Positions 2,808 to 55,382 of a DNA stretch of 64,000 bases are shown here, in pieces; position 1 is the stretch's first letter, and every line of letters begins with the position of its first letter. The DNA comes from Candidatus Poribacteria bacterium. GTDB lineage: Bacteria > Poribacteria > WGA-4E > PCPOR2b. The translations under genes were made by a program, and so were the position numbers. A model generated the notes under the pieces. The model did no database searches. It worked only from the letters and a program-made list of their open reading frames with translations, and was not told the DNA's origin. The stretch is taken from the NCBI GenBank assembly GCA_965198165.1, contig OZ240244.1:1258061-1322060 (forward strand), written 5' to 3'.

Positions 2808-3195
2808 TGAAATTTCTCCTAATTGGAAGTCGTGACCAGTTTCAGAACGCGACATGCCCCAATTCCCACGCTCCAGATGAAGTTTCAGAATTTAAACGGG
2901 TAACCCCAGTTCCCCCCGGATAACGGTCCCACCCCGGTAGGTGCGGTTTTGCGTCAAGTTGCGTCGAGTCATCTGAAGACAGATGGGCAGAGGAATTTTA
3001 ACGCCAGGGCGGCGTAGAAACCAAGTTTTTTGCGTCGCGTTCATCGCGCCACCCGTAGGGGCGGGGTCTCCCCGCCCGTTCTACGGCAACCAAACTCGGT
3101 TGCTCTGAACAGGTGCTCGCACGCTCTATCGCCCATCCTGAAAATTATAGCATATATCTTAACCAAGTTGCCACCTTGGTAATATAACGAGAAAG

Positions 3196-3267
3196 AAACC
3201 GAGTTTTTTGCGTCTCGTCATCGGGTTTCCATCCGCAAGGATCGGCAAAACTCGGTTTCTTGAATTG
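3196..3267. repeat. MITE-like inverted-repeat element (gaaaccgagtttt...aaaactcggtttc)
   Basis: About 13-bp terminal inverted repeats. The same about 65-bp unit occurs in opposite orientation at 16131-16195. Partial copies lie at 3003-3030, 28786-28812, 44256-44290 and 49836-49860. Confidence 0.6.
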
Positions 3268-3276
3268 GTAGCAACT

Positions 3277-3540
3277 TATACCATTTCTGAAAATTTATAT
3301 CGCGTTAGCGGTTTTGATGAAATATCAAACGCCTGTAATCCCGGCTACGGGGGTGCGGTTGATGACGCTTTCTTTGAAAGTGGCAACATGAGTTGACGCA
3401 CATCGTTATCCGATGGGGCAAGATGCCCCGGCTACGGGGGGCTGATGCGTTTTTGCTTATGACTTTCTTTGAAAGTGGCAACATGAGTTGACGCAAATCG
3501 GACTTCCATTAACGAGTGATTTATTATCGGAATTGGTATT
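3277..3540 (+). repeat. about 260-bp dispersed repeat, copy 1 (copy 2 at 54886-55150)
   Basis: Near-identical sequence at both loci. It contains two internal direct repeats of tttctttgaaagtggcaacatgagttgacgca. Confidence 0.8.
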
Positions 3541-3674
3541 ACGTTAGGTTATCTGAATCAAGCAACTTCCAATATAAAATATGCACATTGTACGTTGATG
3601 GAGGGCGGGGGAACCCCGCCCCTACAGTCTTTGCGCCTGATGAAAATCGAAACATTATTTTTGAAACTTGCTCA

Positions 3675-3806
3675 ATAAGCAGGTTTAAGAATAAAAGTTT
3701 CGATTCCGATTCCAAAGAAATCAAGTTTTTGCAAGGGACGGGCGGGGGGACTCCGCCCCTACGGGTTCAAGAATGTGAAAATTACTATTAAAACTTGCTT
3801 ACTGAA
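3675..3806 (+). repeat. about 130-bp dispersed repeat (second copy at 35786-35912), ending in the aatgtgaaaattactattaaaacttgctt motif
   Basis: Near-identical copies. The 3' motif also recurs at 16085-16120, 16196-16230 and 50063-50092. Both long copies abut the 5' end of a + strand ORF. Confidence 0.75.
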
Positions 3807-3839
3807 ATTTTTATTGATAGATTATTGCATATATCTACA

Positions 3840-4190
3840 GTGACCGTTGATGTGATGAATCTCGCCCTAGCGGAGTTTGCCGATGCCGTGAATCCTGAGG
3901 GCAAGAAACAGATATTGTTAGTGTTGGATTGTGCGGGGTTTCACACGAGCGATGCGCTGGAAGTGCCAGCGGGTATAGAGTTATTTTATTTGCCCCCTTA
4001 TTCTCCGGAGTTGCAACCTGCCGAGAGGCTTTGGCCGTTACTAAAGGAGGTGATTGCCAACCGTGTAATGAAGACACTTTGTGCGCTTGAGGAAGTGATT
4101 GTGAATCGGTGTCGCTGGTTTTTGAACAACTGCGAGATTGTGCAATCTCATGTCGGTTTTGAGTGGATTTGCAAAACCGATACACAATAA
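3840..4190 (+). pseudogene. IS630/Tc1-mariner family transposase, C-terminal DDE fragment only
   Basis: The LPPYSPELQPAERLW motif (canonical IS630 DDE region) is present. No N-terminal HTH part or intact start is visible. Confidence 0.65.
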
Positions 4191-4681: not shown

Positions 4682-6118
4682 CCCATCCCTTTAGGGTGGG
4701 GATGTAACACGCCGCAGCGCGCGCGTCTGAACCATTCAGACGCGCGTAAAAAACCTTGTAAATTTCGATGGGATATGCTATGCTCCTTCTACCGTTTCGA
4801 GGCAAGGGTTCACACTCGCAACCTAGCGGGTGCTTGCCTCACCTTCTGAAACAAGGCATAAACGGTGAAACGGAATCCCATGCGAACATTTAAATACAAA
4901 CTACAAAACCACAAGCGCAACAAACACTTACATCGCGACTTGGAAATCATCGCCCACGTTTACAACCACTTCGTGGCATTGTGTCGCCGCCACTATCGCA
5001 TCTATGGACAGTGCGAAGGCTACAAGCGTTTGACATTCAGTCGAATGTCCAAGCACCTCACGAAACTCAAACGGCTTGATAAGTTTGCCCACTGGCACAT
5101 CCCGTTTTCGTGGGCAGTCCAAAACGCTTTGAAACGGATTGAACTCGGGTATATCAACTTCTTTGAGAACCGTGCCAAACGGCCACCCAAATTCCGTAGC
5201 CGTAAAAAATACCGGTCAATGACGTTTGACGGTTCGCAAATCAAAATAGAACCCTTCGCCGATGCGGAATATGGCATCCGCCATGTCCCCGTTGCGAAAA
5301 TCCGCGTCCGTGGGCGTTGGTATCGGTTCTGGTATTCGAGACCGATTGAAGGCAACATCAAGCAAGTCACAGTCAAGCGTGACGGGCTTGGCGATTTCTA
5401 CATTACCATTACAACAGATTTGAATGGGTCGCTTGTCGATAGGCGACCCATTCAAGAAGGATTAACCCCTGAACCACTAACTGGTGAAACAGCAGGGTTT
5501 GATTTTGGGTTAAAAACCTTTCTCACTTGTTCTGATGAAACGAAATACGAATCGCCCCTGTTCTATAAACGCTCTGCCCGCCAGGTTGCCAAAGCCTCAC
5601 GGTCGCTGTCCAAAAAGAAACGGGACAGTAACAACCGTGAAAAAGCACGAAAGCACCTTGCCCGTGCCCACCGTAAAATTCAACGCCAGCGTGAAGATAA
5701 TCACTTCAAACTTGCCATCGACCTCGTCCGCAGGTTTGACTTCTGCTTTTTTGAGGACTTAAACCTCAAGGGTATGGCACGGCTTTGGGGCAAAAAAGTG
5801 CTTGACCTCGCCTTCGGTGACTTCATGTTGAAAATACGATGGCAAGCCCATAAGCGGTGCAAGCGTGTTGAAACCATTAACCGTTGGATTGCCACAACAA
5901 CGGTTTGCCACAGTTGCGGTCAAAAACACGCCTTCATAGACCTCAAAGTCCGTGAATGGCGTTGTTCATGTGGTATCAAACACGACCGCGATGTGAACGC
6001 CGCAAAAGTGGTTCACAAGGTTGGGACATCAACCTTTGCCGGAGAGAGTGTTAGACTCGCTACAGCGGGCTTCCCTCTATGATAGCAGAATCCCCATCCC
6101 TTTAGGGTGGGGAGTATG
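4682..6118 (+). mobile_element. IS200/IS605-family tnpB-only (IS1341-like) element
   Basis: The imperfect palindrome ccccatccctttagggtgggg occurs at 4682-4704 and 6094-6116, flanking a tnpB gene. This is consistent with LE/RE subterminal hairpins. No tnpA is present. Confidence 0.6.
4865..6082 (+). CDS. tnpB: TnpB (OrfB) RNA-guided endonuclease-like transposase-associated protein
   Basis: 405 aa. N-terminal FKYKLQ motif. RuvC-I (GFDFGLK), RuvC-II (FEDLNLKGM), zinc finger (CHSCG...CSCG) and RuvC-III (HDRDVNAA) are all present. Confidence 0.85.
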   Translation: MKRNPMRTFKYKLQNHKRNKHLHRDLEIIAHVYNHFVALCRRHYRIYGQCEGYKRLTFSRMSKHLTKLKRLDKFAHWHIPFSWAVQNALKRIELGYINFFENRAKRPPKFRSRKKYRSMTFDGSQIKIEPFADAEYGIRHVPVAKIRVRGRWYRFWYSRPIEGNIKQVTVKRDGLGDFYITITTDLNGSLVDRRPIQEGLTPEPLTGETAGFDFGLKTFLTCSDETKYESPLFYKRSARQVAKASRSLSKKKRDSNNREKARKHLARAHRKIQRQREDNHFKLAIDLVRRFDFCFFEDLNLKGMARLWGKKVLDLAFGDFMLKIRWQAHKRCKRVETINRWIATTTVCHSCGQKHAFIDLKVREWRCSCGIKHDRDVNAAKVVHKVGTSTFAGESVRLATAGFPL

Positions 6119-8594: not shown

Positions 8595-8681
8595 TGTTTC
8601 TCTATCCATTATCAAGGATTGGCGATTATAGTAAAGCCCATAATTACTGATACACCGTCGCCCCGCGTGCTTTGATGAAGA

Positions 8682-9030
8682 TTATCCGAGGACGGATGGT
8701 CGTCCGAAGACGGATGGCAACATGAGTTGACGCACGTGAGCGAGCGCAAAAAATAAGTAGGGTAATTTCATACGAGTGCCCGGTGTGGTTTCATGACGTT
8801 TATCCGAGGACGGATGGTCGTCCGAAGACGGATGGCAACATGAGTTGACGCACGTGAGCGAGCGCAAAAAATAAGTAGGGTAATAGCATACGGACACCCG
8901 GTGCGGTTGCATGACGTTTATCCGAGGACGGATGGTCGTCCGAAGACGGATGGCAACATGAGTTGACGCACGTGAGCGAGCGCAAAAAATAAATGGGGTA
9001 ATGGCATACGGGCGGTGCGGTAAACCGCAC
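8682..9030. repeat. three tandem copies of an about 118-bp satellite-like repeat
   Basis: Units begin at 8690, 8807 and 8925. Copies differ by point changes, not by unique spacers. Related copies lie at 20462-20600 and, inverted, at 49862-50040. Confidence 0.85.
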
Positions 9031-16053: not shown

Positions 16054-16130
16054 GAGCGGCGGGGCCCAGGCGCGTCATGGTCTTTGTCAAAATGTAAAAT
16101 TTATTATTGAAAGTTGCTTATCCGCGAGAA

Positions 16131-16195
16131 ACCGAGTTTTGCCGATCCTTGCGGATGGAAACCCGATGACGAGACGCAAAAAACTCGGTTTCTAA
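16131..16195. repeat. MITE-like inverted-repeat element, inverted copy of 3196-3267
   Basis: Exact reverse-complement match to the 3196-3267 unit. Confidence 0.7.
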
Positions 16196-32623: not shown

Positions 32624-33892
32624 ATGAAAAGCCTATATCTTTCTTCACTACGAGGAATTATCGGCGATTGGGAGTACTTTCCGTGTTTAATGAAATTCAG
32701 AGATATTGCTGAAAGAGTAAACTTAGCAGAAGAAATCTATGAGAGCAAAACCCTAAGTGAGCTAGTGGAGCGGGAGCTCCGTCAAAATCGCGGCAAAGAG
32801 ATAAAAGCATATCTGATTCAACAAGAACAACGCTTTGTCAATTCCTTAATCGTTGCAGTTTACGAAGGGGCCCCCAATTGGTATGGAATAACCAACCTGA
32901 AGCCAAACAGCATATTAGAGGTCAATACAATACCTGATGAGATCGTCGAAAATGTTGGATTTCTATGCTTGAGTGGTGGCGAGAGGCTTTTTACACTGGA
33001 CGGACAAGACAGGTTGGTGGGCATTAAAGACGCTGTGAAAGAGAATCCTGAGCTGGGTGACGACGAATTGACAGTCATCTTTATCGCTCATAATACAGAT
33101 TCGGCGGGCAAAGAGAGAAGTCGGAGGCTTTTCACAACATTAAACAAGAACGATAAACTTGTTTCAAAAGGGGGGATTATTGCTCTTGACGAGGATGATA
33201 CAATGGCTATTATCGCCCGGCGGTTGGTTATGGAAAATCCCATGTTTATGGAAAAACGCATCTTGAACAATGCCACCAATAATATACCACCTAGCAATTC
33301 TACTTGCCTAACAACGATTGGGAATCTGTACGATCTGCTCGGAATCCTTTTTACGAAAATCTATGTTATATCGAAAAAAAAGAGACAAGCAGATATAAAA
33401 GAGGAATTGACGAAAACGAGGTTAAGTGATAAAATTCTTGATAAGCACTACAAAAACGCTGGCGATTATTTTACGAGACTCGCATATAGCTTCGCTCCGT
33501 TGACCGAGTTTTGCACCGCCTCCGATTATTCTGCGGTCGTCAAAAAATACAGAAATCCAGAGGGTGGCAGTATTCTGTTTCGCCCAATCGGATTGACAAT
33601 TATCACTGAAATTGTTTCAACGCTGGTCAAGAAATACCCATTGGATAGGTGCTTCGAGTTGGTTTCAAAATTGCCTACTGATCTGACAGCAGAACCTTAT
33701 AACGGTGTTATCTGGCATCTAACGCGAAAGCGGATGACGGGTGGGAAAACTCTCGTCAGAAATCTTTTGCTGTATATGTTGGATGCGTATGATGGGGATG
33801 AAGATAAACTGCACCAAGATTACGCAAAAGCATTAGGGGTAGAACAGAACAAAATCCAGCTTCCTGTATCTGTGATTAAGTGTGTGTCCTGA
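32624..33892 (+). CDS. DGQHR domain protein (DndB/DpdB-like, ParB/Srx-fold), paralog 1
   Basis: FTLDGQDRLVGIK motif. 422 aa. The C-terminal two-thirds are near-identical at DNA level to paralog 2. Confidence 0.8.
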   Translation: MKSLYLSSLRGIIGDWEYFPCLMKFRDIAERVNLAEEIYESKTLSELVERELRQNRGKEIKAYLIQQEQRFVNSLIVAVYEGAPNWYGITNLKPNSILEVNTIPDEIVENVGFLCLSGGERLFTLDGQDRLVGIKDAVKENPELGDDELTVIFIAHNTDSAGKERSRRLFTTLNKNDKLVSKGGIIALDEDDTMAIIARRLVMENPMFMEKRILNNATNNIPPSNSTCLTTIGNLYDLLGILFTKIYVISKKKRQADIKEELTKTRLSDKILDKHYKNAGDYFTRLAYSFAPLTEFCTASDYSAVVKKYRNPEGGSILFRPIGLTIITEIVSTLVKKYPLDRCFELVSKLPTDLTAEPYNGVIWHLTRKRMTGGKTLVRNLLLYMLDAYDGDEDKLHQDYAKALGVEQNKIQLPVSVIKCVS

Positions 33893-33983
33893 GAATCACT
33901 ACCCAGGAGCAGGTCACCAAAATGCGCGGCAACAGGATAGGGAATCTGGTAGACTTGTTGTAGGAGTAGATACGGATTAGGCA

Positions 33984-34493
33984 GTGACAGGAAATGCTAT
34001 GGCACATTATGATGTGGTGAGTCAGCAAAAAGAGGTAAGAATCTATCAGACGAATTTCCTTCTTTGGAAAACACAATGGGATGCTTACACTGACCCGCCG
34101 ATTCCATTGGATTGGAAATGCGTGAAGTTTGAAGAAAATAACATAAACCAGGTTCCTACCGAGAAAGGAGTTTATGCTTTTTTCATTGAGCCAAGACTTG
34201 CCAAATTTCCATCGCACGGCTATTTAGCATATATCGGACAGACAGGATATAAGAGCGAGCGTAACTTGCGAAAGAGATTTGGGGATTATCTCCAAGACAA
34301 AAAGAGATCCAAAAGAGTACGAGTCAATTTAATGTTGAATACATGGGAAGACTATCTGTATTTTTATTACGCTGAAGTTGATCCGGCTCTGGATTTAAGA
34401 CAACTAGAACAAATGCTGTTAGATACTTTCACGCCCCCTTTCGTTGAGCGAGGACATTCAACGCACATAAGTGACATAATCAAAGGAATATGA
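33984..34493 (+). CDS. GIY-YIG nuclease family protein
   Basis: EKGVYAFF...GYLAYIGQTG...NLRKRFGDY matches GIY-(10-11)-YIG plus the conserved Arg. Its stop overlaps the next start (ATGA). Confidence 0.7.
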   Translation: MTGNAMAHYDVVSQQKEVRIYQTNFLLWKTQWDAYTDPPIPLDWKCVKFEENNINQVPTEKGVYAFFIEPRLAKFPSHGYLAYIGQTGYKSERNLRKRFGDYLQDKKRSKRVRVNLMLNTWEDYLYFYYAEVDPALDLRQLEQMLLDTFTPPFVERGHSTHISDIIKGI

Positions 34494-35758
34494 TGATGGA
34501 AAGACTATATCTTTCTTCGCTAAGAGGTCTAATCGGTGATTGGGTGTATTATCCTGCCCTAGTGAAACTCAAGGTTATTGCTGAACGGGTGAGTATCGCT
34601 GAAGAGATTTATCAAAGCCCAGCCTTGAGCAAAATGGTACAGAGATGGATAAAAAGGAATGGTGGTAGGGAGATAAAAAATTATCTCCTCAAACAAAAAG
34701 AGCGTTTCTTTAATTCACTAATCGTAGCAGTCTATGAAGGAGAGCCCGATTGGCATGCGATTACTCGTGTTGACAGCAACAATCCATTGGTAGATGCCGA
34801 GGACATCCCCGACGATGTAGTTGCTGGAATTGGATTTCTCAGTTTGAGCGGCGACGAAAAACTATTCACACTTGATGGGCAACACCGACTTATAGGAATT
34901 AAGGAAGCTGTGGAGGAAGACCCTGAACTGGGCGAAGAAGAATTGACGGTAATATTTATCGCCCATCGCACAGATGAAGCAGGAATGGAAAGAAGTCGGA
35001 GGCTTTTCACAACATTAAACAAGAACGATAAACTTGTTTCAAAAGGGGAGATTATTGCTCTTGACGAGGATGATACAATGGCTATCATTGCTCGGCGGTT
35101 GGTTATGGAAAATCCCATGTTTATGGAAGACCGCATCTTGAACAATGCCACCAGTAATATACCACCCAGCAATTCTACTTGCCTTACGACCATTGGGAAT
35201 CTGTACGATCTGCTCGGAATCCTATTCACAAAAATCTATGTTGTATCGAAAAACAAGCGGCTGGCAAAGATAAAAGAGGAATTGACCCAAACGCGGTTAA
35301 GCGATGAAATCCTTGGTCAGCACTACAAAAACGCTTGCGATTATTTTACGAGACTCGCATATAGCTTCGTTCCGTTGACCGAGTTTTGCACCGCCTCCGA
35401 TTATTCTGCGGTCGTCAAAAAATACAGAAATCCAGAGGGTGGCAGTATTCTTTTTCGCCCAATCGGATTGACAATTATCACTGAAATTGTTTCAACGCTG
35501 GTCAAGAAATACCCATTGGATAGGTGCTTCGAGTTGGTTTCAAAATTGCCTACTGATCTGACAGCAGAACCTTATAAGGGTGTTATCTGGCATCCAACGC
35601 GAAAGCGGATGACGGGTGGGAAAACTCTCGTCAGAAATCTTTTGCTCTATATGTTAGATGCGTATGATGGGGATGAAGATAAACTACATCAAGATTACGC
35701 GAAAGCATTAGGGGCACCCCAGTTGCTACCTGTTCCATACAAACTAAAACAGGGTTGA
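34490..35758 (+). CDS. DGQHR domain protein, paralog 2
   Basis: FTLDGQHRLIGIK. 422 aa. Translationally coupled to the GIY-YIG gene. Confidence 0.8.
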   Translation: MMMERLYLSSLRGLIGDWVYYPALVKLKVIAERVSIAEEIYQSPALSKMVQRWIKRNGGREIKNYLLKQKERFFNSLIVAVYEGEPDWHAITRVDSNNPLVDAEDIPDDVVAGIGFLSLSGDEKLFTLDGQHRLIGIKEAVEEDPELGEEELTVIFIAHRTDEAGMERSRRLFTTLNKNDKLVSKGEIIALDEDDTMAIIARRLVMENPMFMEDRILNNATSNIPPSNSTCLTTIGNLYDLLGILFTKIYVVSKNKRLAKIKEELTQTRLSDEILGQHYKNACDYFTRLAYSFVPLTEFCTASDYSAVVKKYRNPEGGSILFRPIGLTIITEIVSTLVKKYPLDRCFELVSKLPTDLTAEPYKGVIWHPTRKRMTGGKTLVRNLLLYMLDAYDGDEDKLHQDYAKALGAPQLLPVPYKLKQG

Positions 35759-35904
35759 TATAACCGACAACCTCACATATAATATTAAGCAGGTTTAAGA
35801 ATAAAAGTTTCGATTCCGATTCCAAAGAAATCAAGTTTTTGCAAGGGACGGGCGGGGGGACCCCGCCCCTACGGGTTCAAGAATGTGAAAATTACTATTA
35901 AAAC

Positions 35905-36777
35905 TTGCTTATTATGGCACAACAATATGATAGCGTCTCAAAATATATCATCTCGGCGTATCCGCAAGCGATGGCAAAACTGGTCTTCAGCAGTCAAACC
36001 GTCGAAGTGCAGGAAACCCTCTCTACTGAGCAGATTATTGTCGATGTCGGCTACACCGATATCACCCTCAGGGTGAAACGTCCTGATGGCACATTAGCTA
36101 CGCTCCACATTGAGGTGCAAACCCGCGATAGCCAGGAACCGATGCCGTTGCGGATGGCAGCGTATCATGGATACCTGCTTAGAGAGTATAAGATGCCCGT
36201 CTGCGGCTGTGTTATTTATCTTGCCCCGAATGCTGGCAAAACCGACCCCGGTCACTATACCTATGAATGGGACGGGTACCAGTATCTGATGCAGTACAAG
36301 GTGATACGATTGATTGAGATAGATGGGCAAGCGATTTTGGAAACGCAGGACCCCGGTTTACTACCACTCACGCCTTTGATGAAACGGCCTAATGATATGG
36401 ATGCCGATCGCTGGTTGGACGAATGTGTTAAAGCGACCAAGGCGGCAGCCGTGGCACCGGAGGTTTTGCCCAATTTATTGGCGGTTTTGAGTATCTTTAG
36501 CAGTTTGGTTTATGACTCTGAACAGATTAACCAACACATCCCGGAGGTCATGATGCACGAATTTCCGTTAGTCCAACACTTTATTGAACAAGGGATTAAG
36601 CAAGGGCGTCAAGAAGGGCATCAAGAAGGGCGCCAAGAAGGTACTGAGCAAGCCCTGACAGCAATTGCGATTGCCATGCTGAACGATAATCAACCGATTG
36701 ATACGATTGTCAAATACACCGGCTTATCTGAAGCGGAGATTAAACAATTAACCGAATCGGTTGATTCAACGACCTAA
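35905..36777 (+). CDS. Rpn/YhgA-like PD-(D/E)XK recombination-promoting nuclease / putative transposase
   Basis: C-terminal QGRQEGHQEGRQEG repeat. Family-typical tail ...IDTIVKYTGLSEAEIKQL. The likely start is the ATG at 35914; the ORF track uses TTG at 35905. Confidence 0.7.
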   Translation: MLIMAQQYDSVSKYIISAYPQAMAKLVFSSQTVEVQETLSTEQIIVDVGYTDITLRVKRPDGTLATLHIEVQTRDSQEPMPLRMAAYHGYLLREYKMPVCGCVIYLAPNAGKTDPGHYTYEWDGYQYLMQYKVIRLIEIDGQAILETQDPGLLPLTPLMKRPNDMDADRWLDECVKATKAAAVAPEVLPNLLAVLSIFSSLVYDSEQINQHIPEVMMHEFPLVQHFIEQGIKQGRQEGHQEGRQEGTEQALTAIAIAMLNDNQPIDTIVKYTGLSEAEIKQLTESVDSTT

Positions 36778-36872
36778 GCCTAACCCCTTTTCAAACAGAC
36801 TCTGAACACAGGTGCGAATAGTATGCAAGGGCTTGGATTGGGCGATCCAACCCGAACGACTGGCAGATCAGA

Positions 36873-36908
36873 AAAGCCCCAACCATATCAAATGGCTGGG
36901 GCTTTTTG
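36873..36908 (+). terminator. rho-independent terminator
   Basis: aaaagccccaaccatatcaaatggctggggctttttg is a GC stem plus T-run. A duplicate lies at 37344-37380. Confidence 0.7.
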
Positions 36909-36960
36909 AATAACGGGTTCGACCCGGGTTGCCCTCTACACGGTAGATTATCGCTTAGGT

Positions 36961-37248
36961 ATGTACGAAAATGACTCTGAACAGATTAACCAACACATCC
37001 CGGAGGTCATGATGCACGAATTTCCGTTAGTCCAACACTTTATTGAGCAAGGTATTGAACAAGGGATTAAGCAAGGGCGTCAAGAAGGGCATCAAGAAGG
37101 GCGCCAAGAAGGTACTGAGCAAGCCCTGACAGCAATTGCGATTGCCATGCTGAACGATAATCAACCGCTTGATACGATTGTCAAATACACCGGCTTATCT
37201 GAAGCGGAGATTGAACAATTAACCGAATCGGTTGATTCAACGACCTAA
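36961..37248 (+). CDS. free-standing Rpn C-terminal fragment ORF (95 aa), possibly an RpnS-like small protein or a pseudogene
   Basis: Near-identical to the last about 90 aa of the 35905..36777 protein. Preceded by the duplicated terminator block. Confidence 0.4.
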   Translation: MYENDSEQINQHIPEVMMHEFPLVQHFIEQGIEQGIKQGRQEGHQEGRQEGTEQALTAIAIAMLNDNQPLDTIVKYTGLSEAEIEQLTESVDSTT

Positions 37249-37489
37249 GCCTAACCCCTTTTCAAACAGACTCCGAACACAGGTGCGAATAGTATGCAAG
37301 GGCTTGGATTGGGCAATCCAATCCGAACGACTGGCAGATCAGAAAAGCCCCAACCATATCAAATGGCTAGGGCTTTTTGAATAACGGGTTCAACCCGGGT
37401 TGCCCTCTACACGGTAGATTATCGCTTAGGTATGTACGAAAATCTATGCTCCCTCCGCAAAAAAGAACGCAGCGGACATAAAAGATGGA

Positions 37490-37966
37490 TTGACTAAAAC
37501 ACGATTCAGTGATAAAATTCTTGATACGCACTACAAAAACGCTTGCGATTATTTTACGAGACTCACAGATAGCTTCGCTCCGTTGACCGAGTTTTGCACC
37601 GCCTCCGATTATTCTGCGGTCGTTAAAAAATACAGAAATCCAGAGGGTGGCAGTATTCTTTTTCGCCCAATCGGATTGACAATTATCACTGAAATTGTTT
37701 CAACGCTGGTCAAGAAATACCCATTGGATAGGTGCTTTGAGTTGGTTTCAAAATTGCCTACTGATTTGACAGCAGAACCTTATAACGGTGTTATCTGGCA
37801 TCCAACGCGAAAGCGGATGACGGGTGGGAAAACTCTCGTCAGAAATCTTTTGCTCTATATGTTAGATGCGTATGATGGGGATGAAGATAAACTGCACCAA
37901 GATTACGCAAAAGCATTAGGGGCACCCCAGTTGCTACCTGTTCCATACAAACTAAAACAGGGTTGA
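37490..37966 (+). pseudogene. DGQHR paralog-2 C-terminal fragment (158 aa)
   Basis: Near-identical to the C-terminus of 34490..35758. The N-terminal DGQHR motif region is absent. Confidence 0.6.
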
Positions 37967-37988
37967 TATAACCGACAATCAGTATCTG

Positions 37989-38501
37989 ATGCAGTACAAG
38001 GTGATACGATTGATTGAGATAGATGGGCAAGCGATTCTGGAAACGCAGGACCCCGGTTTACTACCACTCACGCCTTTGATGAAACGGCCTAATGATATGG
38101 ATGCCGATCGCTGGTTGGACGAATGTGTTAAAGCGACCAAGGCGGCAGACGTGGCACCGGAGGTTTTGCCCAATTTATTGGCGGTTTTGAGTATCTTTAG
38201 CAGTTTGGTTTATGACTCTGAACAGATTAACCAACACATCCCGGAGGTCATGATGCACGAATTTCCGTTAGTCCAACACTTTATTGAGCAAGGTATTGAA
38301 CAAGGGATTAAGCAAGGGCGTCAAGAAGGGCATCAAGAAGGGCACCAAGAAGGGCGCCAAGAAGGTACTGAGCAAGCCCTGACAGCAATTGCGATTGCCA
38401 TGCTGAACGATAATCAACCGATTGATACGATTGTCAAATACACCGGCTTATCTGAAGCGGAGATTAAACAATTAACCGAATCGGTTGATTCAACGACCTA
38501 A
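37989..38501 (+). CDS. Rpn C-terminal half fragment ORF (170 aa) with one extra HQEG repeat unit
   Basis: Matches residues about 125-290 of the 35905..36777 protein. The junction at 37966-37990 fuses the DGQHR 3' end to Rpn internal sequence. Confidence 0.4.
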   Translation: MQYKVIRLIEIDGQAILETQDPGLLPLTPLMKRPNDMDADRWLDECVKATKAADVAPEVLPNLLAVLSIFSSLVYDSEQINQHIPEVMMHEFPLVQHFIEQGIEQGIKQGRQEGHQEGHQEGRQEGTEQALTAIAIAMLNDNQPIDTIVKYTGLSEAEIKQLTESVDSTT

Positions 38502-38632
38502 GCCTAACCCCTTTTCAAACAGACTCCGAACACAGGTGCGAATAGTATGCAAGGGCTTGGATTGGGCAATCCAATCCGAACGACTCGGGGTGGAAAAGAA
38601 TCAAATCCATCTTCCTGTATCTGTGATTAAGT

Positions 38633-39625
38633 GTGTGTCCTAAGAATCACTGCCAAAGTATCACGAAAAATATGTCCCCCGATATCCTACAAAACTATGT
38701 CCAAAGGATGGAACGCTTGCGAATAGACAGGGCGCACGGAGACGCTCCTCACAAGCCTCTCCTCCTGTTGGCAGTCATTGAACTGATTGAGCAAGGACAG
38801 ATTCACGAAAATAGGATCCACCTCTCCCCAGATTTGGCTGAGACCTTCATGAAATATTGGTCAACAGTAACGAATCGAAGGACCAATATCGCCTTGCCAT
38901 TTTTCCACTTAAGAGGTGATGAATTCTGGCATCTCCATCCAAATCCTGGATACGAAACAGCCTTGAACGTCGCCAGTCGAATCAGAGGGATTTCTCGCCT
39001 TCGCGAAGTTATTGCGTATGCGAGTTTGGATGACGACCTTTTTGTTTTACTCACTAATCCCCTGCATCGAGAAGTCATCCGCCAAACCCTTATCCAAACC
39101 TATCTTTCGGATTTCGAGCAAGAGATCGAAAGTCTCCTTGCAGAAGAACAGCAGATTGGAGAATATAGGGCTTTGCTAATCCGACAAAGCGAACTTCCCT
39201 TTTCATCTCAGGAACCAACAGCACCAATCCAAGCAGAAACTTCAATTCGTGACGCGGGTTTCCGTCAAGCAATCATGGGATTGTACAATTACACCTGCGC
39301 TGTCTGTGAGTTGCGTATTGTCACAATGGACGGAGAAAGTGCGACTGACGCTGCCCACATCATTCCCTTTAGTCTTTCGCAGAATGACGATGTACGAAAT
39401 GGAATTTCTCTGTGCAAATTGCACCATTGGGCTTTTGACAAAGGATTAATTTCCTTGAGCGAGACCTATCAAGTTATTGTTTCGGTGCTTATGTCCGATC
39501 AGCGTCCAACGGAGGACAGGCTAACTGAACTGCGCGATAGATCTATATTGTTGCCCGAACACAATCAACTATACCCTGCCCAAGATGCCTTGGAGTGGCA
39601 TCGTGAGGAAGTGCTTAGACAGTAA
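38633..39625 (+). CDS. HNH endonuclease with an N-terminal recognition-like domain
   Basis: HNH core CAVCEL...AHIIPF...NGISLCKLHHWAFDKG. The N-terminal 230 aa, uncharacterised, contain GDAPHKPLLLLAVIELIEQG. Confidence 0.75.
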   Translation: MCPKNHCQSITKNMSPDILQNYVQRMERLRIDRAHGDAPHKPLLLLAVIELIEQGQIHENRIHLSPDLAETFMKYWSTVTNRRTNIALPFFHLRGDEFWHLHPNPGYETALNVASRIRGISRLREVIAYASLDDDLFVLLTNPLHREVIRQTLIQTYLSDFEQEIESLLAEEQQIGEYRALLIRQSELPFSSQEPTAPIQAETSIRDAGFRQAIMGLYNYTCAVCELRIVTMDGESATDAAHIIPFSLSQNDDVRNGISLCKLHHWAFDKGLISLSETYQVIVSVLMSDQRPTEDRLTELRDRSILLPEHNQLYPAQDALEWHREEVLRQ

Positions 39626-39678
39626 CTTAATACGATCCTCAATGAAGCTCTTAACCACTAAAATAGATGAGGTGCTCT

Positions 39679-41265
39679 ATGGGTAACTGGCACAAAATTA
39701 AGGTCAGTTCAAAAATATTGGGGCACATTAGTGGAGGCATATATCGTAGCCCCGCTGATGCGATAAAAGAATTAGTCAGTAATGCGTTTGATGCCGATGC
39801 GACTCGTGTTGCGATTACCACGAATTGGCCGAGCTTCGATATCATCACATGCCGTGACAATGGCAGTGGGATGGAGCAAGAGAAGTTTGAAAGGATAATG
39901 ACTCAGGAAATCGGCGAAAGCACGAAGCGGGTTGCAACTGATGGGAACCCTAATGATGTGACAGAGCTGGGTAGACCAATAATTGGGTGGTTAGGGATTG
40001 GTATGTTGGGAATTGCTCAAATTTGTCGCGAGTTCAGAGTTATATCGCATCATAAGGAGACTCAAACGGCTTTTAGGGCAAGGGTACGTTTGGAGGATTT
40101 CCTCCGTGAAAAAGTGAGTGATATTCCACCAGACCCCGTCGTCCAGCAGTCAATCAACGTTGGGGAATTTATGGTCGAACCGATTGACTATGAACCGGAC
40201 AACGCAGGCACTTATGTGATTGCCTCGCGGGTGCGCTCGGCTTTTCTGAGGCAATTTCGAGCAACTGTAGGCGAAGAGCGGTTGCCATCAAAATTTTCAG
40301 CATTTTTGAAGACCATCCACCGCGCCAGATCTGTGAAAGCTCTCGGTGACTATTGGCAGATGGTTTGGGAGCTAACTGTGGCATGTCCAGTTCCCTACGC
40401 CGAGGCAGGTCCCTTTGATTGGGATAAAATTGAGGTAGAACCGAAACTCAAAAAACGGTTAATTGACCTGCAAGAAACATTAAGAGCGTACCAATTTCAG
40501 GTAGTTGTTGATGGTTTATCGTTACGCAAGCCGAATCAATATCCACTTGCCGCTCCGCAAATACCAAAGCATAAACAAACAACAGGAAAGTTATTCTCTG
40601 TCAATAAAGAGGGAGAAGTATATGGGCAGACTTTCAAATTATCTGGCTACATTTACTTGCAAAATGGTCACGCAGTTGAACCGATGGAACTACGTGGCTT
40701 GTTGGTAAGAATACGAAACACCGCTATCGGGACTTACGACCCAACTCTCTTTACATACCCGAGCATTCCGGCACCGTGTTTCAATTGGTTATCCGGTGAA
40801 ATCTATGTTGAAAAGGGCTTGGAATTCGCGCTAAACATAGACAGGGACAGTTTCAATGAGATGCATCCTCACTTCGTGAAACTCAAAGAGATTATCCACA
40901 ATTTGCTCAAGCAGGAAGTTTTTCCCGAAGCACACCGAGGCCAAAGAAAAAGGTCTCAAGGAATACATGAGGATAGGGAAAATACAAAACGAGCCATCCT
41001 CAAATCTTTAATTCGTCAAGAGCTCGGCGGCGATTATGTACTCACTCGAACAGATGAAAAACCATTTCCCCTGACAATTGATACAGTTCAAGACATGATA
41101 TTCGAGAACAATCAAAGCCCCTTATTACCTAACGCTAAAAGCAAACGGGAACTCATACAACGCATCGCGTATGCCTTTGAAATTTCTATGGAAGCTCCAG
41201 AGGACAAACGTAGGGAAAAATTTTACCTGCTACTATCAGAGTTCGTAAAGTTAGGTTTGTTGTAA
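39679..41265 (+). CDS. GHKL-superfamily ATPase (HATPase_c_3-like)
   Basis: N-box ELVSNAFDADAT. G1 box CRDNGSGM. Length and architecture are typical of defence-associated MORC/HATPase proteins. The ATG at 39679 (MGNWHK) is likelier than the one at 39667. Confidence 0.7.
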   Translation: MGNWHKIKVSSKILGHISGGIYRSPADAIKELVSNAFDADATRVAITTNWPSFDIITCRDNGSGMEQEKFERIMTQEIGESTKRVATDGNPNDVTELGRPIIGWLGIGMLGIAQICREFRVISHHKETQTAFRARVRLEDFLREKVSDIPPDPVVQQSINVGEFMVEPIDYEPDNAGTYVIASRVRSAFLRQFRATVGEERLPSKFSAFLKTIHRARSVKALGDYWQMVWELTVACPVPYAEAGPFDWDKIEVEPKLKKRLIDLQETLRAYQFQVVVDGLSLRKPNQYPLAAPQIPKHKQTTGKLFSVNKEGEVYGQTFKLSGYIYLQNGHAVEPMELRGLLVRIRNTAIGTYDPTLFTYPSIPAPCFNWLSGEIYVEKGLEFALNIDRDSFNEMHPHFVKLKEIIHNLLKQEVFPEAHRGQRKRSQGIHEDRENTKRAILKSLIRQELGGDYVLTRTDEKPFPLTIDTVQDMIFENNQSPLLPNAKSKRELIQRIAYAFEISMEAPEDKRREKFYLLLSEFVKLGLL

Positions 41266-41286
41266 ACTCTATAGGAGCCTGCATAG

Positions 41287-42396
41287 ATGAATCACATCAA
41301 TTTTGAAACAGATCTTCCCAAACATTACGTCAGAAGATACGGATGGTTGCGGGCTATTCAGCAACAAAAACAGGCAATCAGAAAACGGTCAAAAAGGATT
41401 CCCTTGCGCTATTTTACGTTCTGTGCAGAAGATGCAATTGATGTCTTTATGTTAGAACGCGAGGAAATTCTTAAAAGGTCAGAGGAAACAGGGTACCTAG
41501 AAGGTGTCTACTTTTGTGAGGAGGACCTTGAGAAGTTCGGGAAAATAGCTAATTTAATAGGCTCCGCTGAACAAGGGTTTCAAGGCGCATTTGAAAAGAT
41601 TGTACTGTTTGAGGACGATGAAGAAACAACGGGGAAAACATTGGAAGATGAGGATTCTTATCCACCTGAGATCCACGAAAAGCTTATATTCAAAGATGCA
41701 CATCATCGCTTACATGAAGCGTTCCCATTCGATATTATCAACCTTGACGTGTTTGGTGTCATGTTTCCCGCCAGAAAGGGGATTATAACACCCCTTCTGG
41801 AATCAATTATTCAAATTTTAGAGTGGCAAACGGAATCAAGGTTTTCAATCAACAATCGCGAATGCGACCAATTCACGTTATTTCTTACCTCTCACATTGA
41901 TCCAGATCTGACAGATCAAACCGCAATACAACAACTTGAAAATCGAGTCATTGACAATATCAGTACGAGTGTGGATTTTGAATCTGCTTTTGTCAAGCAA
42001 TATGGACACAATCAAGTTCAGAAACTCGTAAGTGAGAATTTCGCCGAATTTTTCTGCGTCGCCCTTCCGAAATTTATGATTTATCAGGCCCTATTTGAGC
42101 TCGGGTGGCAAGTCACCTGTGGCCCGACATATTTGTATAATCGTGATGACAGGTGGATGGAAAATAAGCAGTATCAAATTATGCACACGGTTTCAGTTTA
42201 TGAACGTATTCCCAACTTTCAAAAACGTCTTGATGCTCCCAGTGCAGGTCAATATATTCAGTTAGTCACCCAACTTGTCAATGATGGCGTTGAATGGGTG
42301 GATGATGTTATAGCAAATCCTGATATCAACCGGGAATTAAAGGAAGATCTGGAAGGGATTGTCGAATTGAGAAATCGGTATCAGAGACCGCAATAG
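41287..42396 (+). CDS. hypothetical protein (369 aa), probable partner of the GHKL ATPase
   Basis: Long ORF, 22 bp after the ATPase stop. No motif I can assign with confidence. Confidence 0.5.
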   Translation: MNHINFETDLPKHYVRRYGWLRAIQQQKQAIRKRSKRIPLRYFTFCAEDAIDVFMLEREEILKRSEETGYLEGVYFCEEDLEKFGKIANLIGSAEQGFQGAFEKIVLFEDDEETTGKTLEDEDSYPPEIHEKLIFKDAHHRLHEAFPFDIINLDVFGVMFPARKGIITPLLESIIQILEWQTESRFSINNRECDQFTLFLTSHIDPDLTDQTAIQQLENRVIDNISTSVDFESAFVKQYGHNQVQKLVSENFAEFFCVALPKFMIYQALFELGWQVTCGPTYLYNRDDRWMENKQYQIMHTVSVYERIPNFQKRLDAPSAGQYIQLVTQLVNDGVEWVDDVIANPDINRELKEDLEGIVELRNRYQRPQ

Positions 42397-53171: not shown

Positions 53172-54275
53172 TTATGTGGATGAGCTAACCGATTCCGTTA
53201 ACTGTTCAATCGCCTCCTCAGACAATCCTGTATATTTCGCAATCGCATCAATCGGTTGATTATCATTCAACATCGAAATCGCAATTGTCGTAAGAGTTTG
53301 CTCAGTACCGCGTTCAATACCGCGTTCAATACCTTCTTCACGACCGCGTTCAATACCTTCTTCACGACCGCGTTCAATACCTTCTTCACGACCGCGTTCA
53401 ATACCGCGTTTTTCGCCTTGTTTAATGAGGCGATCTGCCATTGTATATACCATGTCTGTCACATCCTTTCTACGTGAAAGTGGAATTTGGTCCTGAACGA
53501 CTGCTTTCAAGTCCTCGTGTTGGTCAACCGGACGGCGATGTAGGATTAGCAACAGCAGATAGGAAATCGCCTTCTCCCACTGTTGCCTTTGTGCTTCACC
53601 AAGGGTGTTGATCTGCGAGAGGGCTTCTATCAACGCGCCCCTTATCTCTGCCTCGCTCGCATTTTCCTTTTTCAAGACGGTCAGCAACCACCCCAACGGA
53701 TGACCGCTTTGCGTTAGGATGGCATCATCTGTCCCCTTTACGTCTAGGAGCAGTATTTTGAATTGCGGAACAAACTCAGAGAGCACATCCGGGATGTCCA
53801 TTATGGCATCGAGGGTCAGCGGGGCATTCCATCCCTGCTCGCCGGTGTAAAACACAATCGGGATTATCGGACGCAAACGTTGCTGACTGGCGGGAACGTC
53901 GTTCGATTCCCACTCCCGGCTTTGCAAATCCAAAATATGGTTCATGTAAGAATTGACTCGAAGTGCCATTTTCACATCCACCGTGGATTGGTGTTCTATG
54001 AGAATATAGATGAACAGCTCTTTGGGACCCGATTCGCTACGAAGTGGCACCTTAAATACGATGTCTGCGAACCGCTCTCGCAGGTCGTCGGCAAGAAAAC
54101 TCGTGTTGATGAGTTCGAGTCGACTAAAATCAATGAGGGGCACCAGTCTGTAGGCGAGGATTTCAAACAATCCTCGGACGTACTCTCTGTCTTGGAGCAA
54201 CCATCGGGCACTTCGGTCTGAGAAGCGCCCAATCGGCATGTCGAAAAATTTAATTATTTCTGTTACGTTTGCCAT
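53172..54275 (-). CDS. Rpn/YhgA-like PD-(D/E)XK nuclease / putative transposase, second copy
   Basis: Tail ...IDAIAKYTGLSEEAIEQL. The (EEGIERGRE)x3 amino-acid repeat is encoded by perfect 27-bp DNA tandem repeats at about 53300-53400. The N-terminal core FADIVFKV...ELFIYILIEHQSTVD is family-typical. Confidence 0.7.
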   Translation of the reverse strand: MANVTEIIKFFDMPIGRFSDRSARWLLQDREYVRGLFEILAYRLVPLIDFSRLELINTSFLADDLRERFADIVFKVPLRSESGPKELFIYILIEHQSTVDVKMALRVNSYMNHILDLQSREWESNDVPASQQRLRPIIPIVFYTGEQGWNAPLTLDAIMDIPDVLSEFVPQFKILLLDVKGTDDAILTQSGHPLGWLLTVLKKENASEAEIRGALIEALSQINTLGEAQRQQWEKAISYLLLLILHRRPVDQHEDLKAVVQDQIPLSRRKDVTDMVYTMADRLIKQGEKRGIERGREEGIERGREEGIERGREEGIERGIERGTEQTLTTIAISMLNDNQPIDAIAKYTGLSEEAIEQLTESVSSST

Positions 54276-54610
54276 AATTCCGCAGATTTGCAAAAAGGTT
54301 CTAAATCCATATACCGTAGGCGGGCAATCCCTTTCCCTCCCACAGGTACCGCTTAAAATCGAGCATAAAAAAACCCCACCCATGGAAATGGAAGAGGCTC
54401 TAAGTCAATAACAGTACAATAAGAGTAGAAGTCGTTTATTTTCAGCATTCCTTTCCCAACCTCTCTGGATCAGATTAAAAGGATAGTTTGAAAGTAGGAT
54501 TAAGTGTAACACACAATCACTCTCTTTCGCAAGAAAAATCTTAAATTTACATTCTGAAGCAAGGCCCACACCGCTGTAGATGCCCCCGGCCGCTCCCGAT
54601 CGTCCCTGTT

Positions 54611-54642: not shown

Positions 54643-54885
54643 TATGAATGAACATTCGGTGTCACCTGTTGAGTTGCTAAAAAGCCCCACCCCGAATGGT
54701 CGGGATGGGGCTCTTAGGGGTTGGCGCGCTGTTGATTACTCAAAGCGATATTCTCCTCATCGCACGATGAACTGCGTATGCTCGATAAGCTATTCGAGTT
54801 TTACGCTTATATACCACAGAAGAATTTGAATGGCGGTGCCGTAGATTAACAGAATGCTTGCCCAATTCGGCATCCTCTGCGAAAA

Positions 54886-55150
54886 CTTATACCATTTCTG
54901 AAAATTTATATCGCGTTAGCGGTTTTGATGAAATATCAAACGCCTGTAATCCCGGCTACGGGGGTGCGGTTGATGACGCTTTCTTTGAAAGTGGCAACAT
55001 GAGTTGACGCATATCGTTATCCGATGGGGCAAGATGCCCTGGCTACGGGGGGCTGATGCGTTTTTGCTTATGACTTTCTTTGAAAGTGGCAACATGAGTT
55101 GACGCAAATCGGACTTCCATTAACGAGTGATTTATTATCGGAATTGGTAT
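54886..55150 (+). repeat. about 260-bp dispersed repeat, copy 2 (copy 1 at 3277-3540)
   Basis: Near-identical over about 260 bp, in the same orientation. Confidence 0.8.
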
Positions 55151-55382
55151 TAGGAACCCTCTGCGGATCCGCCGATTCCATAACGATAACCGACAACGAG
55201 AAGCTTCCCCATAAAAAACCATGTAGGGCCATCGTCTTTAAAAGATCGTCGGGTAGCAATAACCAGACCGCAAACAAACCAAATGTTGCGACCATTGCAA
55301 GCGACTTGTTGCGTGTAAGAATGTCCCAATTCTTCATGGAAAATATTCGCTTCATGTTATTCATCCTGACTTTGGATGCGTT

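Follow-up and report, generated by a model that had tools for sequence, protein, structure and literature searches.

A candidate rpnL/rpnS toxin–antitoxin locus with stand-alone RpnS-coding copies in a probable defence island of a Candidatus Poribacteria bacterium

Why should a nuclease-like gene be followed, on the same strand, by truncated copies of its own 3' part, with a piece of a neighbouring gene set between them? The question is raised by a stretch of 64,000 nucleotides, called the window here at its full length, from contig OZ240244.1 of the Candidatus Poribacteria assembly GCA_965198165.1 (positions 1,258,061 to 1,322,060, forward strand). In it, a full-length Rpn-like gene, named rpnL below, is followed by two C-terminal Rpn copies and by duplicated pieces of DGQHR genes. 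With a probability of about 0.68, we believe that this region is a toxin–antitoxin (defence) locus of the rpnL/rpnS type, and that the downstream fragments would be RpnS-only cistrons, the counterpart of E. coli ypaA.

In E. coli, Zhong et al. (2023, PMC10400941) reported that rpn genes contain an internal start from which the C-terminal domain is additionally translated by itself as RpnS, the antitoxin of the nuclease RpnL. The 4-aa repeats of E. coli RpnS start 8–20 residues past its Met and vary in number among strains, and in the RpnC pair RpnS counteracted RpnL only at equal repeat number (PMC10400941). RpnS may also be encoded by a gene of its own behind the rpn gene, as with ypaA and rpnE, and rpn arrays arise through tandem direct duplication (PMC10400941). 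For E. coli, a nested RpnS, separately encoded RpnS genes, variation of the 4-aa repeats and tandem duplication have each been described already, and with stand-alone RpnS downstream of rpn, repeat variation and tandem rpn arrays published before, the novelty is lower than the first-pass annotation of the window implied. That annotation was right that the fragments carry the portion with antitoxin activity in E. coli (PMC10400941). Unlike the RpnL/RpnS systems of E. coli (RpnA–E and RpnP2), the candidate here belongs to an uncultivated Poribacteria lineage.

The rpnL gene likely starts at the ATG at 35914 and runs on the + strand to 36777, giving a protein of 287 aa with a PD-(D/E)XK-fold N-domain and a C-domain that corresponds to the RpnS module. 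A Rpn/YhgA-like gene had previously been placed at this locus; its Rpn-like architecture and C-domain stand, and its start has been moved from 35905. In alignment A1 of 37 homologues, D49, H65, E67 and Q69 are invariant and form a D...ExQ pattern of the PD-(D/E)XK type. RpnL would be a toxic PD-(D/E)XK nuclease, the support for the predicted activity being the conserved catalytic-type residues D49, E67 and Q69. The C-terminal module is clearly Rpn by its sequence: it has the three-helix RpnS/HTH_Rpn_C form and superposes on the E. coli RpnA-S crystal structure, PF27070 HTH_Rpn_C was recorded as a weak match on called genes, and NCBIfam TIGR01784 (Rpn family) matches just the C-terminal 90 residues of the 287-aa protein, under its cutoff. 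Profile A1 was also compared with a canonical Rpn profile, A2, made from a second Rpn gene of the window, its relatives, and E. coli RpnA and RpnE; the two were collinear (97.5% probability, E 5e-12), with the score coming mostly from the C-terminal half, and the invariant residues of A1 lined up with the D...E-H-Q motif of canonical Rpn. This second, canonical gene (53172–54383, - strand) encodes 403 aa, matches Pfam Transposase_31 at 2e-30, and has GIER/GREE 4-aa repeats and an HTH_Rpn_C tail. Its tail shares 78% nucleotide identity with that of the 287-aa gene, and therefore two different nuclease N-domains are placed on one C-terminal module in this genome. The present system would resemble that of E. 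coli in joining a small helical domain to the C-terminal side of a PD-(D/E)XK nuclease, with an RpnS of predicted 74 aa here and of about 49 aa in E. coli RpnA.

A Shine–Dalgarno (SD) sequence, GGAGG, lies inside rpnL at 36543–36547, followed by an ATG ATG pair at 36550–36555; translation on the + strand from the second ATG (36553, M214) to 36777 would give a nested RpnS(n) of 74 aa, n being the repeat number of the full gene in the window. The sequence ccGGAGGtcATGATG stands ahead of the repeat tract in all three copies of the window and in 12 of 12 copies from related contigs, and CCGGAGG-N5-ATG is present in 15 of 15 copies (window and six related contigs). The same signal was followed in distant homologues from Candidatus Poribacteria genomes (41–51% identity); all counts of distant homologues and loci in this text are among the matches listed. 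Of the Pro-Glu codons 5' of the equivalent Met, the one for Pro reads CCG in 69 of 73 homologues and the one for Glu reads GAG in 68 of 68; in 68 of 73 the synonymous sites of CCG-GAG-G are fixed, with neighbouring codons varying freely at such sites. In 5 of the 73, Trp replaces Met and GGAGG is gone as well. The SD and the Met covary, which at the level of sequence is good evidence that selection maintains an internal ribosome-binding site of the kind used by the gene-within-gene system. Public gene calls of 66, 74, 78 and 82 aa begin exactly at the internal Met, the 78-aa call (P0121) being identical to the product of copy 2, described below; exact-protein look-ups of the 95-aa, 170-aa, 78-aa and 82-aa products gave no record. 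As in E. coli, a ribosome-binding site with its ATG inside the gene would allow a small protein to be made separately, and we believe that the last 74 codons of rpnL are probably also translated separately from the internal GGAGG-N5-ATG to give RpnS.

How much of this unit is retained in the fragments was read from a self-BLASTN of the window. Every duplicated block listed in the first-pass annotation was recovered at about the same coordinates, and the blocks are not chance matches, because the E-values are all from 1e-18 to 0. On the + strand, the full gene is followed by the blocks t1 (36778–36861) and t2 (36862–36972); t2 contains an intrinsic terminator hairpin (36868–36909; -25.5 kcal/mol, z -3.75 by RNA folding), then a U-run. 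Copy 2 (36971–37443, +) begins at junction J1 and comprises the 3' 278 bp of rpn, then t1 and t2, with a second terminator at 37339–37380 (+). It is matched at 96% identity by 36512–36972, that is, by the last 266 bp of the Rpn-like gene and 195 bp 3' of it, terminator included. Its translation signals on the + strand are an SD at 37002–37006 and a frame for RpnS(n+1), 78 aa, at 37012–37248. Copy 3 (37980–38585, +) is entered at junction J3 into Rpn codons 123–287 and is followed by t1 only, without terminator; it is 95% identical to 36280–36861 (the same codons and 84 bp), and the sole gaps are two 12-bp units. Its SD is at 38243–38247 and its frame for RpnS(n+2), 82 aa, at 38253–38501 (+). 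The products that matter in the fragments are predicted to be RpnS(n+1) and RpnS(n+2), beside the nested RpnS(n). The ORFs (open reading frames) of 95 and 170 aa proposed earlier are maximal frames and probably not the products, and their ATGs, at 36961 and 37989, have no SD; the ribosome-binding site that had been asked for is the conserved internal GGAGG-ATG, which sits further in (37002–37014 and 38243–38255), and both fragments retain the internal start and an open frame.

Between and behind the Rpn copies lie pieces of DGQHR genes. A DGQHR (DndB-like) 3' fragment, 'f', occupies 37435–37978 (+), with J2 at its 5' end and a stop codon plus 12 bp at its 3' end. It matches 35270–35770, the 3' 500 bp of DGQHR paralog 2 plus 12 bp, at 95.4% identity over 37478–37978, and 33352–33839 in paralog 1 at 93.6% over 37435–37922. 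Because paralog 1 matches too, and from 37435, the fragment is a mosaic of paralogs 1 and 2 that starts at about 37435, not at 37490 as first reported. We set it aside as a functional gene: the changes private to it are concentrated in its first 40 codons, and its presence is accounted for by its having been carried along in the duplication. Behind copy 3, junction J4 leads into a remnant at 38587–38654 (+), 90% identical to 33836–33903, which holds the final 50 bp of a paralog-1-type DGQHR gene and bases 3' of the gene, and abuts an HNH gene.

The copies differ above all in their 4-aa repeats. According to the alignment of 15 copies and their translations, the 12-bp repeat tract of rpnL (36586–36636, +) reads EQGI KQGR QEGH QEGR QEG and begins about 11 residues past M214; the position past the Met and the number varying among strains are as in E. 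coli. Tract length differs among all copies, the full gene in the window having n units, copy 2 n+1 and copy 3 n+2; the third copy, credited earlier with one extra 12-bp unit, has two extra (EQGI, QEGH) against the full gene and one against copy 2. The first helix of the RpnS encoded by the fragments would then be one and two 4-aa repeats longer than that of the resident gene. Across copies and strains, the counts range from n-3 to n+3, always in 12-bp multiples, and full-length proteins of 275, 279, 287, 291 and 295 aa in related strains reflect this variation. A stand-alone copy differs in repeat number from the neighbouring full gene in the window, in the related contigs L001 and L005, in all 9 distant copies described below, and in E. 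coli rpnE/ypaA, where YpaA of strain K-12 (NC_000913.3, locus L087, 11905–13002; annotated as a pseudogene in RefSeq) has one extra unit, KLEG, against the adjacent RpnE C-terminus. This one-unit mismatch is of the same kind as that found here. In the window, the full gene has n units and a free copy n+1, and in L005 the numbers are reversed, both with the same non-identical GAGCAAGGTATT unit; the swap is compatible with exchange between copies, and also with independent unit loss.

The same locus was recovered in five other contigs of one ENA study through exact-protein look-ups and tiled with segments of the window. In each of the five it lies between a Band_7 gene and the SBD-HNH gene, and six structural alleles were found among strains with about 99% identical flanks, which agrees with the earlier description of the region as a recombination hotspot. 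The simplest form, L006, reads rpn(n) - t1t2 / RpnS part(n) - t1 / tail; L005 has the same block order, with n+1 units in the full gene, n in the free copy, and two DGQHR genes. L004 is an undeleted tandem duplication, DGQHR - rpn(n) - t1t2 / DGQHR 3' half - full rpn(n+2) - t1 / DGQHR tail - HNH, and L001 and L003 share its block order, with a junction J3' that joins the DGQHR fragment and the distal copy in one reading frame. The window allele unites J1 with J2/J3 and has three Rpn C-terminal copies. J4 (t1/DGQHR tail) is common to all six alleles, J2 was found in five contigs (window, L001, L002, L003 and L004), J1 in three (window, L005 and L006), and J3 (37978/37980) solely in the window. 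Microhomology amounts to 2 nt (AT) at J1, 1–2 nt at J3, and 8 of 9 nt at J3'. A diagnostic T in 'gacaaTctcac' identifies an L004-type full second gene copy as the parent of J3, which is a simple deletion. The haplotypes of single-nucleotide polymorphisms (SNPs) across copies are mosaic, as expected with recombining copies, and copy 2 has a private substitution (I to L, column 220) absent from all other alleles. Frameshifts in L003 were left uninterpreted, as this contig, which opens 41 gaps over an aligned 4.3 kb, looks indel-prone. At least one extra RpnS-coding copy lies beside the HNH gene in each of the six alleles.

The arrangement resembles rpnE-ypaA (RpnE_Ss) and rpnC-rpnC_Ss of E. coli in that a separate RpnS copy derived from the adjacent gene stands just downstream of it on the same strand. 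It differs from these in that the stand-alone copies number two here and as many as three at the distant locus L008, against one in E. coli; in that a duplicated piece of the DGQHR neighbour lies between them; and in that six structural alleles are documented in one population. Compared with the tandem rpn arrays (PMC10400941), L004 has two full rpn genes in tandem, each with the 3' end of the upstream gene, and likewise shows no target-site duplications and has variable ends, whereas the distal member in the window is without its nuclease half.

Are the fragments genes or remnants? They may be neutral debris, that is, recent by-products of duplication and deletion which are unexpressed or without effect and await decay. 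The copies are 95–99% identical to their parent, so that intact frames are expected without selection, and the few point differences are mostly nonsynonymous. The upstream context varies by allele: the window has a 170-aa ORF, L001 and L003 have DGQHR::Rpn fusions in frame, and in L005 and L006 the 74-aa gene stands bare. Copy 2 comes after a terminator, and the repeat numbers of the fragments in the window mismatch the resident RpnL. Set against this, not one of the six alleles has lost its extra RpnS-coding copy, three independent junctions (J1, J3 and J3') all drop the nuclease part and spare the SD-ATG-RpnS part, and the E. coli counterpart YpaA is synthesised. More distant loci provide evidence of another kind. 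At 7 of 79 distant loci, in the series L008–L069, 1–3 C-terminal-only copies (9 in total) lie downstream on the same strand, and N-terminal-only copies were seen at 0 of the 79. This asymmetry was not counted as independent proof, because harmful nuclease-only remnants would give the same pattern. The RpnS frame is open from the internal start in 9 of 9 distant copies, 8 of them with SD-ATG; the full gene of L069 and its copy both have Val at the internal-start position and no SD, and in the L063 copy a stop codon lies 5' of the internal start with the RpnS frame intact. L008 (6239–7655; from the Candidatus Poribacteria chromosome OZ250160.1) has three consecutive RpnS-only copies with 4, 8 and 2 GLER units, all intact and with SD-ATG, behind a full gene with 7 units. 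Against the adjacent full gene, the distant copies have synonymous divergence (dS) of 0.08–0.47 and ratios of nonsynonymous to synonymous divergence (dN/dS) of 0.09–0.44, pooled at about 0.28 from summed counts, each value pairing a stand-alone with a full-length copy, so that it averages both lineages and could be distorted by gene conversion. A neutral fragment beside a constrained parent would be expected to give a ratio of about 0.5 or more and, at such distances, an often broken frame. Intact frames persisting to dS 0.3–0.47 and these ratios depart from that expectation, and the stand-alone RpnS copies of this Rpn-like family are therefore most likely maintained by selection in distant Poribacteria. 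For these reasons we regard the debris explanation as unlikely for the window, though it is the alternative to be taken most seriously.

Several other observations, in addition to the averaging in the dN/dS ratios, weigh against a toxin–antitoxin locus with RpnS-only cistrons. The RpnS-coding parts of the window differ by about 4 point changes, 3 of them nonsynonymous, and are too young for a selection test. Copy 2 stands directly behind an intrinsic terminator, and a consensus scan found no promoter-like site ahead of it; copy 3, without terminator, runs into the HNH gene, and a promoter-like site lies inside the DGQHR fragment at 37490–37518. The rule of matching repeats also bears on function. 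If it applies, the stand-alone copies, being mismatched, should not inhibit the neighbouring nuclease; it was found with RpnC, and RpnS(n+1) and RpnS(n+2) may not act on the resident RpnL(n). The first-pass suggestion that the fragments serve as antitoxins to the resident Rpn is thus disfavoured, as by the E. coli result their differing repeat numbers should not allow them to neutralise it. The nuclease half raises a further doubt. Pfam gave no match in the 287-aa protein nor in any of the 37 family members, Pfam and NCBIfam scans of the N-domain found none, and a profile search against PDB sequences found nothing; Foldseek against PDB gave weak matches (E at least 0.01). When the N-domains alone were compared, profile against profile, the match was weak (P = 0.017), with the D..ExQ..PM..R..Y catalytic motifs in register. 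Unlike E. coli Rpn proteins, the N-domain here is missed by Pfam Transposase_31 and TIGR01784, and its link to them consists of fold, motif and the weak profile match. The fold and the motif are right, and homology to YhgA-like domains is not proven by these comparisons. Small-protein translation from the stand-alone copies, their antitoxin activity and the nuclease with which each would pair are likewise put forward here as predictions from the DNA.

How did the patchwork arise? The alleles suggest that a unit [DGQHR 3' half - rpn - terminator] was duplicated in tandem, a state that L004, with its two full genes, still shows. The distal copy would then have lost its promoter and nuclease domain through a J3 deletion at 1–2 nt of microhomology, and a 460-bp segment (RpnS part and terminator) may have been duplicated, or left behind, at J1. 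Unequal homologous recombination among repeats of 84–500 bp could have produced the alleles of the related strains. J3 and J3' would be independent microhomology deletions, and J1 a deletion or a small duplication, each sparing SD-ATG-RpnS and losing the nuclease half. Most of the patchwork would need only one tandem duplication, a few 1–9-nt microhomology deletions and ordinary unequal homologous recombination. We rejected the rpn unit as an insertion sequence or transposon: it has no terminal inverted repeats or target duplications, its ends vary between alleles, no inverted repeats of at least 25 nt were found in 30–42 kb of the window, and inverted repeats with a target duplication are confined to a separate 122-bp element described below.

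The RpnL nuclease itself might, as the first-pass annotation suggested, make the breaks behind the illegitimate junctions, which would be compatible with the reading of the region as an rpnL/rpnS-type locus. All four illegitimate junctions lie within or beside rpn sequence with just 1–9 nt of microhomology, their ends differing between alleles, and Zhong et al. raise Rpn-made breaks for the downstream small homologues and repeats (PMC10400941). Yet sequence does not distinguish such breaks from replication slippage or other break repair, most allele differences need only homologous unequal crossover between the 84–500 bp repeats, and the island also varies by other routes, namely insertion of the 122-bp element and divergence of the HNH gene. 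We therefore find a part for RpnL in its own rearrangement rather improbable.

That the window arrangement is an assembly chimera of L006-type (J1) and J2/J3-type alleles of co-existing strains seems hardly credible to us. In favour of a chimera, several alleles co-occur in the same samples, J1 and J2 stand on one contig in the window alone, J3 is unique to it, and neither exact-protein look-ups nor JGI (Joint Genome Institute) metagenome contigs yielded an independent contig with J3; the latter were scanned for this junction and, separately, for the conserved SD region, both without a match. Against it, three of the four window junctions (J1, J2 and J4) recur in independent assemblies of related strains, copy 2 has its private substitution, the three copies bear three different repeat counts, assemblers usually collapse repeats and do not expand them, the probable source contig is 7.03 Mb long, and arrays of 2–3 copies occur in unrelated complete Poribacteria chromosomes.

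The surroundings of rpnL were then described. A promoter-like TTGATA-17-TATAAT (35755–35783, +), a consensus match only (11/12 in the consensus scan), overlaps the stop codon of DGQHR paralog 2. Between it and the rpn start codon sits a 122-bp miniature inverted-repeat transposable element (MITE; 35788–35909, strand not assigned) that ends in the inverted repeats AGCAGGTTT / AGCAAGTTTT and has a TA/TTA target duplication; it makes up the start of the earlier interval, where it went unrecognised. The window, L001 and L005 carry the element at this site, and L003, L004 and L006 have the site empty. In the MITE-free sequences of L004 and L006, the promoter-like TATAAT lies 6 nt from the rpn ATG, and rpnL may therefore be leaderless in empty-site alleles. 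A second MITE copy at 3678–3799, 99% identical, abuts the remnant of a DDE_3 (IS630-like) transposase (3795–4190).

Upstream of rpnL, the two DGQHR paralogs (32624–33892 and 34490–35758, both +; Pfam DndB, TIGR03187 and PADLOC DndB) are 82.5% identical and are the sources of the duplicated DGQHR pieces. Between them, a 169-aa ORF (33984–34493, +), whose stop overlaps the start of paralog 2, has a weak GIY-YIG match (E 0.002, under cutoff); it is absent from the single-DGQHR alleles L004 and L006. Immediately 3' of copy 3, an SBD-HNH endonuclease gene (38672–39625, +) resembles phosphorothioate-dependent restriction enzymes (Pfam HNH_2; NCBIfam PT-DNA_restrict at 8e-41, below its curated cutoff; DNA-SBD_ScoMcrA on called genes). 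Other neighbours encode a HATPase_c_3 protein and a PP_RS20740-family protein. With the DndB-like DGQHR and SBD-HNH genes, these fit a defence island, and the defence-like look of the DGQHR, SBD-HNH and HATPase genes upholds what the first-pass annotation had proposed. Between most strains (38672–42396 region; L001, L004, L005 and L006), the SBD-HNH gene is 86–91% identical and the Band_7 flank 99.5–99.9%; L005 and L006 have a Trypsin_2 gene in place of the PP_RS20740-family gene. The island varies by gene replacement besides rearrangement. In L002 (1786–8333), the same DGQHR-tail - rpn - DGQHR-fragment module lies by DndE, SNF2-helicase and ParB_N genes, and the rpn module therefore travels with dnd-like clusters. 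Elsewhere, the window (GC content 49.5%) has a 269-bp direct repeat (3273–3541 / 54884–55152, 99%), a 67-bp inverted repeat (3194–3260 / 16127–16193, 100%), a tandem array with a period of about 118 bp (8660–9021) and a TnpB-like gene (OrfB_IS605, 4865–6082). Rfam found no RNA family in the window. A HEAT/PBS-like neighbour had pointed to a cyanobacterial origin, which we rejected: the window lacks HIP1 sites, its GC content is as given above, and CarB, at 79–81% identity to Candidatus Poribacteria proteins, puts the genome in the Poribacteria lineage.

What could mismatched copies be kept for? One conjecture, which we hold to be distinctly doubtful, is that RpnS-only copies with mismatched repeats form a maintained repertoire beside one expressed nuclease gene, a library of RpnS 'keys' of different helix length. 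It is consistent with mismatch being the rule in the window, L001, L005, the 9 distant Poribacteria copies and rpnE/ypaA, and with the n/n+1 state of the window against n+1/n in L005 sharing the GAGCAAGGTATT unit. By analogy only, the copies recall orphan antitoxins and silent cassettes such as pilE/pilS, in which truncated, non-identical copies of a variable segment lie beside one complete expressed gene; the copies here differ in keeping their own translation signals, and the evidence for exchange consists of mosaic SNP patterns. If the conjecture is true, such a library may neutralise non-cognate RpnL variants from paralogues or incoming DNA. Alternatively, the copies may be donors for homologous recombination by which the resident RpnL/RpnS pair changes its number of repeats and with it its specificity, a cassette-style diversification of the lock and key of a toxin–antitoxin system.

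The reading of this region as an rpnL/rpnS-type locus leaves the basic picture of these systems unchanged, and its value is incremental. Through it, the gene-within-gene model of RpnL/RpnS would reach beyond E. coli and cover an uncultivated phylum associated with sponges as well as a nuclease clade missed by current domain models, and the synonymous-site conservation and the joint loss of SD and ATG would add sequence-only support for the internal start. The six co-existing alleles form a ready-made series on how rpn loci diversify. Stand-alone RpnS would be under purifying selection despite frequent repeat mismatch, which the published rule of equal repeat number leaves unexplained.

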